Notes: generated from the letters alone by a model not told the origin. 64,000 nucleotides of DNA from an uncultured virus (IMG/VR IMGVR_UViG_3300031963_000026) (IMGVR_UViG_3300031963_000026:62001-126000), one strand, 5' to 3'; counted from the stretch's first letter, positions 57,130-64,000 are shown. A program made the numbers and translations.

Positions 57130-58160
57130 ACTAATACTGTTTTATAAACAATAAATCCATTTTGACCCGAATCTGTTAACACAACATCGGTTCTTAGAAC
57201 ATCCCCCGAATTTATCTCAAGAATTGGTGTTGTAATGAGAACATTATTAATGTAAGTTGAATACGATGATATATTACTTGAATCATTAACACTCATATTC
57301 ACTTTATATTGTATGGTTCTTGTATCTGAAGTATAAGATGAATTAAAATTAATAGTAGTTTCAAATGTTTCAGGATTATCGGGATATTTTTTTCTTTTTT
57401 GGTTTGGTTTTTTACCATCCAACTCAAACATAGTGAATTGTCTTGAAATTGCCGGTTTTACTTGGAACTCGTTTTCGTCCAAAAGGAACCCTTGTAGTGT
57501 AAAACTGTATTTTTGTAAGTAGAATTTTCTTTTCTCAACATCCATAACCGATTCATCAACAATATCACCCCTTAATATGGGAATATAATGTCCTTTTATT
57601 ACGGTATAAGCTTGTCGAGATGCGAATTTTTCTATAATAACTTTATTGAAAGAATTAACTTCTCTCATTCTGTTACATATAATATAAACGTTATATGTTA
57701 TATCAATCGGAACGGGTTGTGGTATGGAATAAACATCAACACCTTTTCTAGTTCCATCCCATGTTGGAACCGCAACGTATTGATATTGTCTTCTATTAGG
57801 AATATTGAACATTCCACCATATGTTTGTCCAAATTGTACCTCGGGAACTCTAACCACAGTAACAAATGGTAATGAAACGTTTTTATCCAAGTCCTGCGTA
57901 TCCCAAGTTTGTGTAAATTGTGCCCAATTTTGAGTTGTAATAATAAGATCTAAAGTAGGAACAATTTTTCCTTCACTTATAATTTGTAATTCATCCTTAA
58001 CAAAATCCAAAAATCCTCTATCTAAGTCCGCATGAAGTATAGATTTTGGTAAATATGTCCCATCCTCATTGATTTTATCAAGAAGTTCTTGCCTTCTAGC
58101 CGGTCCAAATTTGGGTTCAACTAAAGGTAATGTTGGTATTATTTTCTTAGGTAACGCCAT
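57126..58160 (-). CDS. Tail terminator / sheath stabiliser (T4 gp15-like)
   Basis: LPFVTVVR and PQPVPIDITYNV motifs; position between neck and sheath genes. Confidence 0.6.
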   Translation of the reverse strand: MALPKKIIPTLPLVEPKFGPARRQELLDKINEDGTYLPKSILHADLDRGFLDFVKDELQIISEGKIVPTLDLIITTQNWAQFTQTWDTQDLDKNVSLPFVTVVRVPEVQFGQTYGGMFNIPNRRQYQYVAVPTWDGTRKGVDVYSIPQPVPIDITYNVYIICNRMREVNSFNKVIIEKFASRQAYTVIKGHYIPILRGDIVDESVMDVEKRKFYLQKYSFTLQGFLLDENEFQVKPAISRQFTMFELDGKKPNQKRKKYPDNPETFETTINFNSSYTSDTRTIQYKVNMSVNDSSNISSYSTYINNVLITTPILEINSGDVLRTDVVLTDSGQNGFIVYKTVLV

Positions 58161-58162
58161 TA

Positions 58163-58678
58163 TTATATTCCATTAAATTCATTTCTATTAACAGGTACCG
58201 CCACGAATGTTCTATAAAAAGGTTTATATCCGCCATAAGTATGTTTCAAATCTGAAGTAACACGACCATCATTAGCTACACTATAATACCTTACTTTTGA
58301 TTCCGTTTCATAATATGCAATATAATCACCGTATTCTATATCAATACTTAATTCATCCAATTCTTTTTGATACACCGAAAACGTCATGTTACCTGGTTCC
58401 ATTTGATCTAACTTACTGTTTCCAATAAATTTGTTTTCAGGTGCAACAATCTTAACATACGCTTTGAACTCCACAGGGGGTTGATAGGTAATACCACCTT
58501 CGGGTGCTTCACCATAAACATCGTCTTTTTTGGTTTTACTTTTATCCACTTTATATAAAACCAAAGTAAAGTTCATATCACCTTCCAACCATTCACGACC
58601 CATCTCAATATCTAAGTCGTAGTCTTCAGCTCCAAAAAACTTTCCTAATCTTGTTATCGGTACTTTACGCTCTGCCAT
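58163..58678 (-). CDS. Neck / head-closure protein (gp14-like)
   Basis: DDVYGEA...PVEFKAYV...GDYI motifs; position. Confidence 0.55.
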   Translation of the reverse strand: MAERKVPITRLGKFFGAEDYDLDIEMGREWLEGDMNFTLVLYKVDKSKTKKDDVYGEAPEGGITYQPPVEFKAYVKIVAPENKFIGNSKLDQMEPGNMTFSVYQKELDELSIDIEYGDYIAYYETESKVRYYSVANDGRVTSDLKHTYGGYKPFYRTFVAVPVNRNEFNGI

Positions 58679-58682
58679 ATTG

Positions 58683-58689
58683 ATAAATA
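58683..58689 (-). promoter_or_regulatory. TATTTAT putative late promoter (representative copy)
   Basis: Same strand-oriented heptamer just upstream of many genes. Minus strand: 8721, 18971, 27414, 29780, 30155, 33504, 37903, 49457, 51235, 52719, 56878. Plus strand: 60481, 60824, 61180, 61530, 61880, 62228, 63734. Confidence 0.75.
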
Positions 58690-58720
58690 CTTGATTGTTT
58701 ATTATATTTACCTTTTAAGT

Positions 58721-60475
58721 ATGAATGAAATAAAAATCAATCAACCGCTTGAAATCAGAGCACTTGATGTCCTTGATAGTTATTCAGGGGCAAACAATTA
58801 TATTATTAAATTAAAAATCAAAAAAGATACCAATAAAAAGTTCTATCCAACAAGAAACCAAGCGGAATATATCTTGGCTTATAAAGATTCCGTTCCAAAA
58901 GTTGCAAGAAAATGGGTGGAACTTGATATGTATTTTGCCAATAAATTTGCTGATGAAAAATTATTAACCGAAGTTCCAACCAAAATATGGGTTGAGAAGT
59001 TATTGGTTGAAAAAGATACGTCTTATCACATTTGGGGTAAGTATTTTGAACACGAGGAATTATATGATTTTTGGATTCCTAAATCAGGAATTATTAAAGA
59101 TACTTCTGTTAAGGTTGTTATTGACTATGAAAAGTATTCACATAGACCGCCTCTTTCACACCAAAAAGAAGGTATTGAGAAATTAGTTGGAAATAAAAAA
59201 TACATTCTTGCCGATGATATGGGTTTGGGGAAGACAACACAAACAATTATTGCTGCGTTGGAGACAGGGGTTGAGAAGGTTTTAATTATTAGTCCTGCAT
59301 CATTGAAGATCAACTGGCAACGTGAGATTGAAAATTACACGGATAGATCGGTTGTAATTATTGATGGGAAGAAATGGGAATCCGCCGATTTTGTTATCGT
59401 AAATTATGACATTTTGAAAAACTTTCATGATCCAAAAAATCGGGAAGAAAGTCAAATATTGAATGAAGGATTTGGGTTGGTCATTATTGATGAAGCACAT
59501 TATATTCAAAACACACAAGCACAAAGAACAAAACTTATTAACGATTTTGTTAAAAAAATTGATAGATTATGGTTATTAACCGGAACACCAATGACATCAA
59601 GACCAATAAACTATTATAACTTATTAAGTTTGATTGATTCACCCGTTGCAATGAATTGGATGGCTTATGTTATGAGATATTGTGAAGGTTATCAATTCAA
59701 GGTAGGGAATAGAAAAGTTTGGAATGTTAATGGTGCGTCAAATCTTGAAGAATTAAGAGATAGAACATCTCGTCAAGTATTAAGAAGATTAAAAACCGAC
59801 GTATTGGATCTTCCTGAAAAAATCATCACACCCGTTTATCTTAAATTGAAATCTTATGAATATGAACGATTGATGGGTGAATATTATGATTGGTATGATA
59901 ACTCTAAAGAATCTACCTCATTAACCGTACAATTCACTAAATTAATGAAGGTTAGACAGGTTATATCGGAAGAAAAAGTAAAATCAACAATTGAATTATG
60001 TGAAAACATTATTGAACAAGGAAAGAAAGTAATTGTTTTTACCAATTTTACCAACTCGTTAAACTCTATCTTATCTCACTTCGGAAAAAAAGCGGTTGGT
60101 CTTGATGGTAGTATGCCTCAAGGTATGAGACAAGATAACGTTGATAAATTCCAAAATGATGAAAATATTATGGTGTTTGTTGGGAACATTAAAGCAGCTG
60201 GGGTTGGTATCACATTAACATCTGCGGAAGTTGTTGTTATGAATGACCTGTCATTTGTACCGTCAGATCACTCACAAGCCGAGGATCGTGCTTATCGTTA
60301 TGGTCAAAAAAATAACGTTTTGGTATATTATCCTATTTTTGATAACACGATTGAGGGTATTATTTATAACATTCTACAAAAGAAGAAAAACATCTTTGAA
60401 ACCGTTATGGGGGATAATTTAAGTAAGGGTGATATGGTGGAGGAAATCATGAATATGATTAACACAAAAAGATAA
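58721..60475 (+). CDS. SNF2-family helicase (SMARCAL1/HARP-like)
   Basis: LADDMGLGKT, DEAH, LTGTP, AAGVGITLT and QAEDRAYRYGQ motifs; ATG at 58721 is more likely than the TTG at 58691. Confidence 0.9.
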   Translation: MNEIKINQPLEIRALDVLDSYSGANNYIIKLKIKKDTNKKFYPTRNQAEYILAYKDSVPKVARKWVELDMYFANKFADEKLLTEVPTKIWVEKLLVEKDTSYHIWGKYFEHEELYDFWIPKSGIIKDTSVKVVIDYEKYSHRPPLSHQKEGIEKLVGNKKYILADDMGLGKTTQTIIAALETGVEKVLIISPASLKINWQREIENYTDRSVVIIDGKKWESADFVIVNYDILKNFHDPKNREESQILNEGFGLVIIDEAHYIQNTQAQRTKLINDFVKKIDRLWLLTGTPMTSRPINYYNLLSLIDSPVAMNWMAYVMRYCEGYQFKVGNRKVWNVNGASNLEELRDRTSRQVLRRLKTDVLDLPEKIITPVYLKLKSYEYERLMGEYYDWYDNSKESTSLTVQFTKLMKVRQVISEEKVKSTIELCENIIEQGKKVIVFTNFTNSLNSILSHFGKKAVGLDGSMPQGMRQDNVDKFQNDENIMVFVGNIKAAGVGITLTSAEVVVMNDLSFVPSDHSQAEDRAYRYGQKNNVLVYYPIFDNTIEGIIYNILQKKKNIFETVMGDNLSKGDMVEEIMNMINTKR

Positions 60476-60491
60476 TGATATATTTATCATT

Positions 60492-60815
60492 ATGAAAGTT
60501 AAAGTAACAGAAGATAAGTTATACCCTGTTTTCAAAAAATTTATGGAAACTCAGTTTAAGAATTATGAATGGATCGAAGATAATTATGATGTTGTTTTGT
60601 TTATGAGTCCCGGAGGAGATTCTTATTTGGCGTTGAGTAAAGATAAAACTTTATTAATTTATGCTAAAACCGCAAAAAAAATCCTTAATTACCTTCCTAT
60701 GGAACGATCTATGTTCCTATCACTTATGACTAGATGGGTAGGAGAGACCTTAAATATTAAGGGTATAACCCTCTCGCAGTTTCAACAGTTGGTTTTGATT
60801 AGCCTTAATAGATAA
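60492..60815 (+). CDS. Tandem paralog family, copy 1
   Basis: Conserved start MKVKVTEDKLYPVFKKFMETQFKNYEW; own TATTTAT motif. Confidence 0.85.
   Translation: MKVKVTEDKLYPVFKKFMETQFKNYEWIEDNYDVVLFMSPGGDSYLALSKDKTLLIYAKTAKKILNYLPMERSMFLSLMTRWVGETLNIKGITLSQFQQLVLISLNR
60738..60803. CRISPR. Degenerate repeat + ~30-nt spacer-like segment (unit 1)
   Basis: GTAGGAGAGACCTTAAATATTAAGGGTATAACCCTC (36 nt) then TCGCAGTTTCAACAGTTGGTTTTGATTAGC. No second repeat is recognisable, so the spacer end is set by analogy. Confidence 0.3.
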
Positions 60816-60834
60816 TAATAATATATTTATCATT

Positions 60835-61176
60835 ATGAAAGTTAAAGTAACAGAAGAAAAGTTATATCCATTATTCAAAAAATTCATGGAAACTCAGTTT
60901 AAGAAATATGAATGGAGAAAAGGTAAATTTGATTCCATTTGGTTCATAGACCCTGAAGGATATGGTCACATGGGATTGTTGAAAAATAAAGAGTTATTAA
61001 TCTATCGTGAGATTAAAGATCAAATTCTTCGCTACATTCCTATGGAAAAATCTATGTTACAAACACTTATGAGTAAGTGGGTAGAAGAAACCCTTCAAGT
61101 TGAAGGGTTAACCGTTCCCACTGTACCCCAATTTACAATACCGCGTTTTTATGATGGTGATACCTTTCCATTATAA
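60835..61176 (+). CDS. Tandem paralog family, copy 2
   Basis: Same N-terminus; ends DGDTFPL. Confidence 0.85.
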   Translation: MKVKVTEEKLYPLFKKFMETQFKKYEWRKGKFDSIWFIDPEGYGHMGLLKNKELLIYREIKDQILRYIPMEKSMLQTLMSKWVEETLQVEGLTVPTVPQFTIPRFYDGDTFPL

Positions 61177-61188
61177 GAATATTTATCA
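61081..61188. CRISPR. Repeat-spacer-degenerate repeat (unit 2)
   Basis: GTAGAAGAAACCCTTCAAGTTGAAGGGTTAACCGTT (palindromic core AACCCTTCAA/TTGAAGGGTT), 36 unique nt, then GATGGTGATACCTTTCCATTATAAG... Confidence 0.45.
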
Positions 61189-61190
61189 AT

Positions 61191-61526
61191 ATGAAAGTTA
61201 AAGTAACAGAAGATAAGTTATACCCTGTTTTCAAAAAATTTATGGAAACTCAGTTTAAGAATTATGAATGGAGAAAAGATCGGAATGATGACATTTGGTT
61301 TTCAGATCCTAAAGGGTATGGTCATTTGGGATTGGTACACATTAAGGATTTATTGATCTATCGTGATATTAGAAAAAAAATACTTCGTTATCTTCCTATG
61401 GAACAATCTATGTTAAACTCACTTATGAGTAAGTGGGTAGAAGAGACCCTTCAAGTTAAGGGGTTAGCCCCCACTTTGGCAAGACACGAATCCTATCCAT
61501 TAGTTGATGGATCCTTTCCATTATAA
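61191..61526 (+). CDS. Tandem paralog family, copy 3
   Basis: Same N-terminus; ends VDGSFPL. Confidence 0.85.
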   Translation: MKVKVTEDKLYPVFKKFMETQFKNYEWRKDRNDDIWFSDPKGYGHLGLVHIKDLLIYRDIRKKILRYLPMEQSMLNSLMSKWVEETLQVKGLAPTLARHESYPLVDGSFPL

Positions 61527-61538
61527 GAATATTTATCA
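61437..61538. CRISPR. Repeat-spacer-degenerate repeat (unit 3)
   Basis: 36-nt repeat 61437-61472, 30-nt spacer ACTTTGGCAAGACACGAATCCTATCCATTA, then GTTGATGGATCCTTTCCATTATAAG... Confidence 0.55.
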
Positions 61539-61540
61539 TT

Positions 61541-61849
61541 ATGAAAGTTAAAGTAACAGAAGAAAAGTTATATCCAGTATTCAAAAAATTTATGGAAACT
61601 CAGTTTAAGAATTATGAATGGACAAAAGATGAATATGGGTGTATTGATTTTGTGGATCCTGAAGGATTTGGTCATTTGGAATTGGAAAACAATGAAGATT
61701 TATGGGTTTATGGTGATATTAAAGATCAAATTCTTCGCTACATTCCTATGGAAGAATATATGTTAGAATCACTTATGGGTAGATGGGTTGGAGATACCTT
61801 TCAAATTGAGGGTATAAACACCAGTATAGAATCGTTTCCAAATTTTTAA
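61541..61849 (+). CDS. Tandem paralog family, copy 4
   Basis: Stops at a TAA inside the spacer; the same frame continues IVENAFPL* to 61876. Confidence 0.85.
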   Translation: MKVKVTEEKLYPVFKKFMETQFKNYEWTKDEYGCIDFVDPEGFGHLELENNEDLWVYGDIKDQILRYIPMEEYMLESLMGRWVGDTFQIEGINTSIESFPNF

Positions 61850-61888
61850 ATCGTTGAAAATGCCTTTCCATTGTAAGAATATTTATAT
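61787..61888. CRISPR. Repeat-spacer-degenerate repeat (unit 4), type VI-B-like
   Basis: GTTGGAGATACCTTTCAAATTGAGGGTATAAACACC (36 nt), 30-nt spacer AGTATAGAATCGTTTCCAAATTTTTAAATC, then GTTGAAAATGCCTTTCCATTGTAAG... Confidence 0.65.
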
Positions 61889-61891
61889 GGT

Positions 61892-62182
61892 ATGAAAGTC
61901 AAGGTAACAGAAGAAAAGTTATATCCAGTTTTCAAAAAATTCATGGAAACTCAGTTTAAGAAATATGAATGGAGAAAAGATGAACTTGGGACTATTTGGT
62001 TTATGGATCCTGAAGGATTTGGTGATCTGGAATTGGGAGATAAAAATTTATGGGTTCATCGTGATATTAAAAATAAAATTCTTCGTTATCTTCCTATGGA
62101 AGAATCTATGTTAGACTCGCTTATATCTAGATGGGTTGGAGATACTTTTCAAATTGAGGGTATAAACATCCTCGAGATGTGA
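61892..62182 (+). CDS. Tandem paralog family, copy 5
   Basis: Stops at a TGA inside the spacer; the same frame continues LPW*EEVGDTFPL* to 62224. Confidence 0.85.
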   Translation: MKVKVTEEKLYPVFKKFMETQFKKYEWRKDELGTIWFMDPEGFGDLELGDKNLWVHRDIKNKILRYLPMEESMLDSLISRWVGDTFQIEGINILEM

Positions 62183-62236
62183 TTGCCATGGTAGGAGGAA
62201 GTTGGTGATACCTTTCCATTATAAGAATATTTATAT
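62135..62236. CRISPR. Repeat-spacer-degenerate repeat (unit 5), type VI-B-like
   Basis: GTTGGAGATACTTTTCAAATTGAGGGTATAAACATC (36 nt), 30-nt spacer CTCGAGATGTGATTGCCATGGTAGGAGGAA, then GTTGGTGATACCTTTCCATTATAAG... Confidence 0.65.
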
Positions 62237-62239
62237 GGT

Positions 62240-62914
62240 ATGAAACTACTTGAGAGAAAAATACATTTACTAGAATCTTTATTGGATGGTAAGAATATTT
62301 TTGAAGCCAATTATAAAGCACAAAAATTAGATTATAACTTAAATTCATTATCAGATTTTATCGGTAAAGATACTATGGATGTTCATTATAATGGACATTA
62401 TAAAACTTACCTTAAAAAATTAAATGAACTTCTACCGGATGAAAAAATGATCCCAATAGAAGATTTAATTAAAAAAATATCAAGGTATAACAAGAAAATT
62501 AGGAATAATGCTGGTGGTGTATATAACCACCAACTATTTTGGAAAATGTTATCACCAAACAAAACAAAACCATCTAAAGAACTATTAGAAAAAATTAACA
62601 AAGATTTTGGTTCTTATGATGAGTTCAAACAAAAGTTTGAAAAAGTGGCATTAGACAGGTTTGGTTCAGGATGGGTTTGGTTAATTATGGGTAAAAGTGG
62701 TAGGTTACGTGTCGTATCTACACCCAATCAGGACAACCCCGAGATGAATATTATTAGAAATGGAGGAAAAATTTTATTGGGGCTTGACATTTGGGAACAT
62801 GCGTATTATCTTAGCTACCGAAATGAGAGAGACCGATATATCAAAAACTTTTGGAAAGTGGTAAATTGGGATTTCGTAAGTTCAGAATATCAGAAACTTA
62901 AACCAACTAAATAA
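62240..62914 (+). CDS. sodA: Superoxide dismutase, Mn-type signature, with N-terminal extension
   Basis: HYNGHYKTY, NNAGGVYNHQLFW, FGSGWVWL, TPNQDNP and DIWEHAYY motifs. Confidence 0.9.
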   Translation: MKLLERKIHLLESLLDGKNIFEANYKAQKLDYNLNSLSDFIGKDTMDVHYNGHYKTYLKKLNELLPDEKMIPIEDLIKKISRYNKKIRNNAGGVYNHQLFWKMLSPNKTKPSKELLEKINKDFGSYDEFKQKFEKVALDRFGSGWVWLIMGKSGRLRVVSTPNQDNPEMNIIRNGGKILLGLDIWEHAYYLSYRNERDRYIKNFWKVVNWDFVSSEYQKLKPTK

Positions 62915-63729
62915 TGAAAAACTCATTTGTTCTCAACGAAGAAAAAGTAACAAAATGTTCCTATTCCGAAGTTAGTAAGTACAAAGATTTGTTTAACCGT
63001 AATCCTAAAGTAAAGTGGATTTATCGTGAAGCAATTGACAAAGCACTCGAAGTGGTGTTTAAAGATTTATGGCAAACTCACCCAAAAGGTTCCGAAACTG
63101 TTTCAGGAGTTTTTAATTTAGAAGGACCCGGTAGATCGGTTTTGAATAAGTTAAATACCAATTATAGTGCATTCGCCATATTAGTTAGAGATATCAATAA
63201 GGTATTAAAATCAAGAGGTATCCAACTTTTGAATTTTAATGGAACACAAGACGACCAACTTTTTGAAGCAAGAAAAATGGCTAAGGTGATTGACACATTC
63301 AAAGAACGAATATTCAACACCGAATCATCCACATTTAATAGTATTATGGCAACACTTAATCGCACACATAAATTAGGTGAGAATAGAGAAGATAGTGTTG
63401 TTAATTTTTTGAAAAGGATCTATGGTGACGATAATGTTTCAAAGATTGGTGGGTTAAATAGTTCTGAAGATATGACATCGGGTGTTGATGTTTTAATTAA
63501 AACTGAGGGTAATACTAAAACCGCTCAAGTTAAACCTTTCTACAAAACATTAAATGATGGTGTGACTATTAGGTTCGCAGATACTGGTAACGTTAAAAAA
63601 TACGAGACAGATTACCTGATTTTTGACGGTACTAAAGAAATCTACATTATGAATAACAATCAAACCGTTATTGTTGAAGGTGAATATTCTTTTCCGAGTG
63701 AGTCAGTAATTCATATATTATCAAAGTAA
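62914..63729 (+). CDS. Putative PD-(D/E)XK / restriction-endonuclease-like protein
   Basis: GENRE...GVDVLI...TAQVKP (E...D...QxK) arrangement. Confidence 0.5.
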   Translation: MKNSFVLNEEKVTKCSYSEVSKYKDLFNRNPKVKWIYREAIDKALEVVFKDLWQTHPKGSETVSGVFNLEGPGRSVLNKLNTNYSAFAILVRDINKVLKSRGIQLLNFNGTQDDQLFEARKMAKVIDTFKERIFNTESSTFNSIMATLNRTHKLGENREDSVVNFLKRIYGDDNVSKIGGLNSSEDMTSGVDVLIKTEGNTKTAQVKPFYKTLNDGVTIRFADTGNVKKYETDYLIFDGTKEIYIMNNNQTVIVEGEYSFPSESVIHILSK

Positions 63730-63753
63730 TTGATATTTATATGAAAAAAGACT

Positions 63754-64000
63754 ATGGCAATTATCCCTGAACCAGAAAGAAGTCAATTATACAAAAGAAT
63801 TAAAAATCTTTTAGGTGCCCCAATCCGATCAGTAGAGATTGAGGATGAAATGATGGATTCACTTATGGAATTATCCATTGGTGATTATAGCCAATACGTG
63901 TTAGATTGGTTGATAGAATCTCAATGGACATCTCTTTATGGATTGAATTTAGATGAGAAATCCGTTGCAAACGCACTTGTTAGAAGAACTTTAGATTGGG
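63754..64000 (+). CDS. Neck protein (T4 gp13-like), N-terminal part; runs off the window edge
   Basis: Manual translation MAIIPEPERSQLYKRIKNLLGAPIRSVEIEDEMMDSLMELSI...; the LGAP..xVE motif matches gp13; TATTTAT at 63734-63740. Confidence 0.7.
   Translation, partial: MAIIPEPERSQLYKRIKNLLGAPIRSVEIEDEMMDSLMELSIGDYSQYVLDWLIESQWTSLYGLNLDEKSVANALVRRTLDW

Follow-up and report, generated by a model that had tools for sequence, protein, structure and literature searches.

The 64,000-nucleotide (nt) window analyzed here, bases 62001-126000 of the uncultured virus record IMGVR_UViG_3300031963_000026, contains near its end five tandem plus-strand paralogs encoding small proteins of 96-113 amino acids (aa). 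Copies 2-5 of this gene family end in the same way, with a 36-nt repeat (R1), a unique segment of 30 nt (36 nt for copy 2) and then R2, a second, truncated repeat that comprises the first 16-17 nt of R1 followed by a conserved trailer and starts at 61153, 61503, 61853 and 62201, respectively. We conclude that these cassettes are repeat-spacer units with the geometry and the repeat sequence of type VI-B (Cas13b) CRISPR, located in the 3' coding end of a multi-copy family of small phage genes. The features, in window coordinates and with open reading frames (ORFs) and the putative CRISPR RNA (crRNA) sense indicated, are as follows.

60492..60815, plus strand: paralog 1 (107 aa), 3' end with a degenerate R1 and no clear R2
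60738-60773: copy 1 R1, degenerate, at most 6 bits with the repeat model described below; no unique segment
60835..61176, plus strand: paralog 2 (113 aa), ORF running through R1, the 36-nt segment and R2, with its stop inside the trailer
61081-61116: copy 2 R1, degenerate, followed by the 36-nt unique segment (61117-61152) and R2 (from 61153)
61191..61526, plus strand: paralog 3 (111 aa), with R1, segment and R2 read through in frame
61437-61472: copy 3 R1, degenerate, followed by the 30-nt unique segment (61473-61502) and R2 (from 61503)
61541..61849, plus strand: paralog 4 (102 aa), ORF stop inside the unique segment
61787..61822, minus strand (crRNA sense): copy 4 R1, a VI-B-like direct repeat; the plus strand encodes VGDTFQIEGINT
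61823..61852: copy 4 spacer-like segment, 30 nt, without a relative elsewhere in the 165.5-kb phage record
61853..61888: copy 4 truncated R2 (first ~17 nt) and cassette-specific trailer
61892..62182, plus strand: paralog 5 (96 aa), ORF stop inside the unique segment
62135..62170, minus strand: copy 5 R1, VI-B-like, 18.2 bits on the minus versus 13.0 bits on the plus strand
62171..62200: copy 5 spacer-like segment, 30 nt, guanine-plus-cytosine fraction (GC) 0.50
62201..62236: copy 5 truncated R2 and trailer, directly upstream of a dismutase gene

These coordinates bear out the layout proposed in a first-pass annotation of the window, in which a unique segment of the lengths given above was followed in copies 2-5 by a degenerate second repeat. 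The window belongs to a 129,362-bp record that is rated 43% complete and is wholly contained, at 99.99% identity, in a 165,529-bp record; the DNA analyzed covers only 43-55% of the phage genome. The same layout, which the annotation had suggested looking for, recurred in four further cassettes of the phage, three of them on the minus strand at 11.8-12.9 kb of the genome and the ninth outside the 129-kb record, and identical cassettes were present on seven viral contigs from different samples. One element of the annotation was not confirmed, namely that the R2 region supplies the promoter motif of the next gene: the trailer is the 3' end of each unit, present after the last copy of each cluster and missing before the first, and its motif (at most 3 mismatches) is cassette-specific and no general promoter element of the phage, with seven of its eight occurrences in 129 kb at cassettes. 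On the minus strand of copies 2, 3 and 5 the trailer motif includes TATAAT 17 nt upstream of the spacer (one base off, TACAAT, in copy 4), which we regard as only a lead.

The repeats were compared with a covariance model built from seven arrays adjoining Cas13b genes, which had been found by Cas13b protein search and not via the phage repeat. A periodic scan of species genomes had yielded period-66 arrays of GTTG...CAAC repeats with the phage core, and a Cas13b gene (NF038190, E = 3e-204) adjoined one of these arrays; because that scan was seeded with the phage core, Cas13b itself was then searched for in order to obtain unbiased repeats, and 2 of the 401 sampled Bacteroidota genomes and 10 of 170 from a single family carried it. 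R1 of copy 4 matched the model with 25.2 bits (E = 0.0027 when 110 kb were searched, 4.7e-05 for 1.9 kb) and R1 of copy 5 with 18.2 bits, in both cases on the minus strand (12-13 bits on the plus strand), as against no more than 10 bits for copies 1-3, in keeping with the earlier view that the 36-nt repeat is best preserved in copies 4 and 5. Matches with E < 1 numbered only four in the 165.5-kb record, at R1 of copies 4, 5, 8 and 9, and all were antisense to the gene. The putative crRNA sense is the reverse complement of the genes, which places the intact repeat 3' of the spacer, the orientation that had been predicted.

The minus-strand repeat of copy 4 was identical to the seven Cas13b-adjacent repeats at 24-27 of 36 positions, whereas these real repeats share 22-33 of 36 positions among themselves. 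Among all 127,928 36-mers of the window (both strands), the minus-strand repeats of copies 4 and 5 were the closest to the real repeats, with mean identities of 25.4/36 and 24.3/36 against a background of 9.7 +/- 2.2 (z about 7). The phage repeat matched 15 of the 16 invariant columns of the real repeats, and the U-rich open-loop feature of type VI-B was present as UUUG on the minus strand at the invariant loop columns. The polarity with which the distal repeat is truncated is that of the Cas13b-proximal terminal repeat in real VI-B arrays. The ends do not form the complementary GUUG/CAAC pair, as the minus strand reads GGUG...CAAC; in repeats of the copy 8 type a 4-bp GGUG/CACC stem, shifted by 3 nt, is possible. 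These comparisons show R1 to be a 36-nt VI-B-like repeat with a putative crRNA sense antisense to the gene, and in this respect, as in the 36+30 geometry, the annotation was upheld. A Rfam scan of positions 58000-64000 at E up to 10 returned no CRISPR repeat family, only two chance-level matches.

According to the Cas13b preprint (10.1101/092577), type VI-B is characterized by 36-nt repeats with GUUG/CAAC ends and a U-rich loop, 30-nt spacers and a 66-nt crRNA consisting of a 5' spacer and a 3' repeat, with the array oriented as cas13b. The phage cassettes resemble such arrays in their 36-nt repeat, ~30-nt spacers and period of 66, in the central 16 nt of the minus-strand repeat, which fit the consensus of the seven Cas13b-adjacent repeats, in the polarity of the truncated terminal repeat and in an identity that lies within the VI-B range. 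They differ in that the units are located inside ORFs and are translated, that mostly one spacer is present per unit, that nine separate cassettes take the place of one array, that two of the five terminal-stem pairs of the repeat are broken and that no Cas13b was present in the phage records searched.

The best bacterial relative of the phage repeat, 28/36 identical as counted by eye, was located in a 12.4-kb contig of a Flavobacteriales genome bin (L174:3287-3388), where a solitary VI-B-type mini-array of two 36-nt repeats and one 30-nt spacer was the top-scoring hit of the model (38.7 bits, E = 1.5e-6). A TraD/VirD4-like gene flanks it on one side and a serine recombinase gene on the other, and it therefore probably sits on a mobile (conjugative or integrative) element; Cas13b was not found in this genome bin. 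Unlike the phage units, the L174 mini-array is intergenic and has no small gene attached to it, and its GGUG/CACC terminal stem is closed. In a distant cassette family (L028) the repeat is identical to that of the window at 27 of 36 positions, including a 14-nt core, and there the small ORF enters the repeat in another frame; the L028 small protein had no homology to the paralog family detectable by hhalign (probability 0.9%). A further repeat type, GGTGGAAGAGGT...CACAAC, was observed near family genes on viral contigs L237, L246-L248 and L255-L256, with a repeat length of 36 nt, 30-nt spacers and up to seven repeats; it is closer to the L028 repeat than to that of the window.

To characterize the unique segments of the window subfamily, we used a set of 12 (four from the window, three from the second cluster, one from copy 9 and four from a related contig), of which seven were 30 nt, two 29 nt, two 31 nt and one 36 nt in length. 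Pairwise identity had a mean of 0.257 and a maximum of 0.43, so that the segments are mutually unrelated, and their GC ranged from 0.23 to 0.50, both as first noted in the window. Their GC of 0.418 exceeded that of the genome (0.328; P = 0.0006), and in a second subfamily the corresponding values were 0.449 and 0.317. At one orthologous locus in the related contig R1 was identical at 36/36 positions and the 3' flank at 646/662 (97.6%), while the spacers agreed at only 9/29 and 12/27 positions and differed in number as well. Lake-metagenome contigs were found in which the repeat end (61822) is joined to the repeat start (61787) via novel inserts of 27-30 nt, and relatives carry three to five perfect repeats with spacers of 29-31 nt. 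Taken together, these data show that the ~30-nt segments have the character of foreign-like spacers, replaced rather than mutated. Iterons or partition-site repeats and the target of a diversity-generating retroelement were considered as well and were rejected, because whole unique segments are exchanged and the repeats match those of type VI-B.

The small proteins belong to a superfamily that comprised 87 clusters at 50% identity in a profile search, with 5-14 family members per related jumbo phage. No named family was assigned to the paralogs in Pfam, PHROGs or a protein atlas, and a fold search of the PDB gave no match (best Foldseek E 0.29; best VIA Z 4.4, which is not meaningful); in a viral structure library only uncharacterized phage proteins were alike, at template modeling (TM) scores of 0.7-0.82. 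The viral collection yielded no relative of the distant YVGNTF... group. Of 65 close homologs, 64 have the R1-encoded peptide at their end, and in 39 of these another in-frame unit comes exactly 10 residues later; in 10 of the 65 database homologs the second repeat is in another reading frame; since open-tail counts from database proteins are biased (truncated tails collapse into one cluster), DNA-level counts were used instead. Self-similarity over 148 proteins occurred at an offset of 22 aa in 30 proteins, at 21 aa in one and at other offsets of 10-40 aa in none. The homologs thus have a fixed period of 22 aa, or 66 nt, and not the gradually diverging C-termini without fixed spacing that had been named at the outset as evidence to the contrary. 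In the second subfamily, repeat pairs spaced at 63-70 nt were present at 28 of 39 viral loci, and its arrays have up to 11 or more perfect repeats that decay distally; most of its spacers measure 30 nt. The same 66-nt units, from one to 11 or more, are located behind related genes in many phages, and the layout first seen in the window is that of a large superfamily.

These results bear on the possibility of ordinary paralog divergence, in which the C-terminal motif and the intergenic region would be conserved, the tail would be free of constraint and the likeness to Cas13b repeats would be due to chance. Such divergence would agree with R1 being coding sequence that varies among the paralogs mostly at wobble positions and with the weak motifs common to some tails (e.g., copy 2 and copy 8). 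It does not account for spacers replaced at 97.6% flank identity, for multi-repeat arrays with perfect repeats, for a period of exactly 66 nt, for repeat-model matches at cassettes only or for a z value of about 7 relative to all 36-mers of the window, and we consider it very improbable. Instead, we think that the units are derived from CRISPR and are renewed by a CRISPR-type integration process, a joint statement to which we give a somewhat better than even chance. A new unit would arise by repeat duplication together with a 30-nt insert, and the integrating agent would likely be Cas1-Cas2 of the host, since a complete 294-kb relative encodes none.

Beyond their origin, the units may engage the type VI-B machinery of the host. 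Spacer+repeat RNAs made antisense to the genes would load host Cas13b, either as decoys or as hijacked guides, a proposal that we put forward tentatively and hold to be somewhat more doubtful than not. The strand-specific repeat match, the exact VI-B geometry, the polarity of the terminal repeat and the L174 mini-array in a bin lacking Cas13b argue for it. A close precedent is provided by the solitary repeat units of viruses (RNA anti-CRISPRs, Racr), which PMC10651486 reports for all CRISPR types except type VI, from a survey in which ORFs were masked and at least 90% identity to known repeats was required. Like Racr and viral mini-arrays, the phage units are cas-less repeat mimics carried on a virus in several copies, and Racr have been proposed to act through host Cas proteins (PMC10651486). 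Unlike Racr, the phage units are VI-B-like and lie within genes, share about 70% identity with known repeats and show spacer turnover; they also overlap ORFs rather than occupying an intergenic site just downstream of a promoter. Our literature search found no Cas13 mini-arrays in phages, although full papers or supplements could hold cases.

Several results weigh against this reading of the units, their CRISPR origin included. With respect to the repeat, copies 1-3 are degenerate and do not fit the model, two of the five terminal-stem pairs are broken or non-standard, predicted folds are weak (-4.9 kcal/mol for copy 4 and 0 kcal/mol for copy 5), the repeats of the second subfamily reach only about 15 bits with the VI-B model (E about 0.7-0.9, again antisense), and the exact repeat core had no match in 185,579 species genomes. 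With respect to the effector, Cas13b was absent from two sets of five phage records each (0/5 and 0/5, one record rated 100% complete by CheckV), so that the search in related phages advised in the annotation came back empty; Cas1 was likewise absent from five related phage records, no Cas proteins were recognized in a Pfam scan of the 89 ORFs of at least 120 aa in 129 kb, and few genomes of the candidate host phylum carry Cas13b (2/401 sampled, and 10/170 in one family). A sigma-70 promoter and terminator scan gave no more hits than shuffled sequence (promoters, 11 versus 12.4 +/- 3.5), the neighboring genes are all on the plus strand, and no RNA dataset was present among the runs carrying window sequence, two runs labelled RNA-Seq being probably DNA and their contigs strandless. 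Nor did the search for spacer targets, also proposed at the outset, produce a foreign match: none of the 12 spacers had a target elsewhere in the 165.5-kb phage record or in the other loci compared, three exact 30-mer scans of the viral collection matched only the phage's own cassettes (6/6 matches for the copy 5 spacer), and megablast, blastn and tblastn searches of the phage collection gave nothing significant (best E 0.5, none on a spacer).

The remaining results that count in this direction concern translation. The AlphaFold2 model of paralog 5 had a predicted local distance difference test (pLDDT) score of 91.6 and a predicted TM (pTM) score of 0.82, with the R1-encoded residues inside the fold, and silent sites in R1 were no more conserved than those in the rest of the gene (0.74 versus 0.84-0.93). 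In the second subfamily a stop in the gene frame occurred in 4 of 56 spacers, whereas the other two frames had stops in 17 and 29, and among distinct in-frame spacers it occurred in 2 of 48, where 20.8 +/- 3.4 were expected. Arrays of at least five spacers had none (0/38; in L274 some of the counted units lie beyond the end of the first ORF), and spacers in long arrays were of 30 or 33 nt only. In virus record G582 (L275:934-3109, L276, L277) modules consisting of the domain, two to five units of 22 aa and an acidic linker follow one another three in a row in frame, and, in ORFs of 357-725 aa, unrelated domains follow the fused modules at the C-terminus. Being in frame and depleted of stops, the long arrays are translated, sometimes inside polyproteins, which the annotation did not foresee, and any purely RNA-level reading must account for them.

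An alternative explanation lies at the protein level, in which an ~83-aa folded domain carries one or more units of 12 constant and 10 hypervariable residues and the variable peptides would be the product, either processed from multi-core precursors or displayed as variable loops; the CRISPR likeness would then concern only the generation of units, or be coincidence. The depletion of in-frame stops and the lengths divisible by three in long arrays, the in-frame fusion of modules into polyproteins with further domains downstream, the confident fold predicted to include the R1-encoded residues, the 5-14 family members per phage and the 22-aa period across the superfamily all agree with it. Multi-core peptide precursors have conserved flanks and hypervariable cores, and the phage genes are like them in their folded or long leader, their repeated constant and variable units and the many paralogous genes. 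In the phage genes, by contrast, the variable parts are random-like with foreign-like GC, and stops and frameshifts are common in short arrays; cores comparable to those of RiPP-like (ribosomally synthesized and post-translationally modified peptide) precursors are intact in the long arrays but not in the window subfamily, where a stop interrupts the gene frame in 5 of 12 spacers, a share not below that of the other frames. There are spacers of 29 and 31 nt and out-of-frame repeats, the repeats of an array do not differ even at silent sites whereas its inserts bear no relation to one another, and no peptide-maturation enzyme family was recognized by Pfam among the 89 ORFs, many of which are without a family. 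The spacer-encoded residues are random-like (C 3.6%, H 5.2%, W 1.8%), and spacer GC is flat over the codon positions (0.45/0.40/0.43), with GC at third positions (GC3) of 0.43 versus 0.25 in the gene, from which it follows that the segments have not evolved as phage coding sequence. We regard a protein-level function as quite unlikely.

It seems instead that selection keeps the frame open and does not shape the peptides. An open frame may serve to avoid polarity or the loss of downstream coding sequence, which would also explain why stops are tolerated in single-spacer cassettes. Conservation itself appears to lie at the nucleic-acid level, for which the L028 repeat in another frame, the second repeats in other frames and the spacers of 29 and 31 nt can be listed.

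The turnover of spacers and their foreign-like composition could also be accounted for without any RNA product, if the cassettes were an adaptation sink or the scars of integration. The gene 3' end would mimic a repeat, host Cas1-Cas2 would insert 30-nt spacers and the 36-nt unit would be duplicated, the phage either tolerating the insertion or offering decoy sites that divert integration from the host array. A candidate agent is type II-C Cas1-Cas2 acting in trans, as PMC8092290 reports for Flavobacterium columnare, where II-C adaptation proteins serve VI-B arrays. This account would fit a selection that seemingly filters only frame and stops and not amino-acid content, and the absence of Cas1 from the phages (0/5 records); furthermore, 49 of 170 genomes from one candidate host family encoded II-C Cas9, and the first ~20 nt of II-C repeats recur in VI-B and phage repeats. 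Arrays beside cas9 in the same bacterial family had 47-nt repeats and a period of 77 in 8/8 cases (the ninth of nine regions was without an array); these Bacteroidota II-C arrays agree with the phage in spacer length (30 nt) and in the first ~20 nt of the repeat, but differ in their period (77, not 66) and in the 3' half of the repeat. The period difference is not a full exclusion, as II-C systems with 36-bp repeats exist according to PMC8092290. On the other hand, mere damage should lead to loss of the repeat-like part, yet this is the best conserved protein region across homologs of 35% identity. Phage DNA would be expected to be the main source of spacers in infection, yet 0 of 12 spacers match the 165.5 kb of phage DNA, and the sequence upstream of R1 had no likeness, by eye, to the leader side of eight real arrays. 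We therefore judge a mere sink or scar to be unlikely.

A more elaborate scheme would combine these elements, the cassettes being live CRISPR arrays inside phage genes: during infection host Cas1-Cas2 would write foreign 30-nt spacers into the ORF and double the 36-nt repeat, and the phage would gain both antisense RNAs that reprogram or jam Cas13b and new variable peptide units on a stable small domain. As 36 and 30 nt together make 22 codons, each gain of a unit would extend the protein in frame. We consider this scheme improbable as a whole. The cassettes may act as decoy or hijacked guides, as an adaptation sink or as peptide cassettes.

The source is a freshwater T4-like jumbo phage: the Pfam scan of 89 ORFs showed a T4-like myovirus with gp32, gp25, T4 baseplate, sheath, family B polymerase, ribonucleotide reductase (RNR) and a sigma factor, and its GC is 0.33. 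SprB repeats in one tail protein point to a Bacteroidota host, and window sequence was present in runs from 14 studies, most of them bearing freshwater, lake-water or fungus metagenome labels. The five paralogs are flanked by an SNF2 helicase gene on one side and an Fe/Mn superoxide dismutase gene on the other. The latter (62240-62914) is full-length (Sod_Fe_N and Sod_Fe_C, E = 3e-39) and directly follows the last cassette, whose trailer constitutes its upstream sequence; 3' of it is a 271-aa ORF (62914-63729) without a Pfam or PHROGs family and with only a weak match to AbiJ N-terminal domain 3 (E = 0.036). Elsewhere in the phage, thymidylate synthase is divided between two ORFs at 21.4-23.5 kb of the genome (L046:1422-2135 for profile positions 105-265, L046:3006-3515 for positions 2-108) with a 237-aa ORF without assigned family between the halves, an arrangement that resembles an intron or homing-element insertion. 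Possible counter-defense genes encode a cyclic-phosphate-processing receiver domain protein (PF20274, E = 2e-23; L046:6565-6954) and a polyvalent-protein-type ADP-ribosyltransferase (PF18760, E = 2e-12; L045:1291-1770). A 619-aa ORF (L045:3719-5578, genome 4.1-5.5 kb) contains internal DNA repeats of ~80% identity at a spacing of ~140 nt and gave only odd, sub-threshold Pfam matches.

Virus-borne repeat mimics are known for most CRISPR types, and the survey PMC10651486 reports none for type VI, in a design that masked ORFs; an intragenic array arrangement is likewise not known to have been described for type VI-B. Here a VI-B-like unit is built into a large phage gene family that comprises 87 clusters (50% identity) and is present in 5-14 copies in each jumbo phage. 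Should the units act on Cas13b, no earlier natural case would be known of a counter-measure or hijack working at the RNA level on an RNA-targeting CRISPR system, and the units would also offer natural guide scaffolds for Cas13b in which the stems are altered. If host integrases write the units, CRISPR adaptation would be operating on viral coding sequence, and if the arrays are live in the full sense set out above, it would have been co-opted by a virus to write directly into that sequence. Either way, in the arrays translated in frame a single sequence carries two overlapping kinds of information, which was unexpected.

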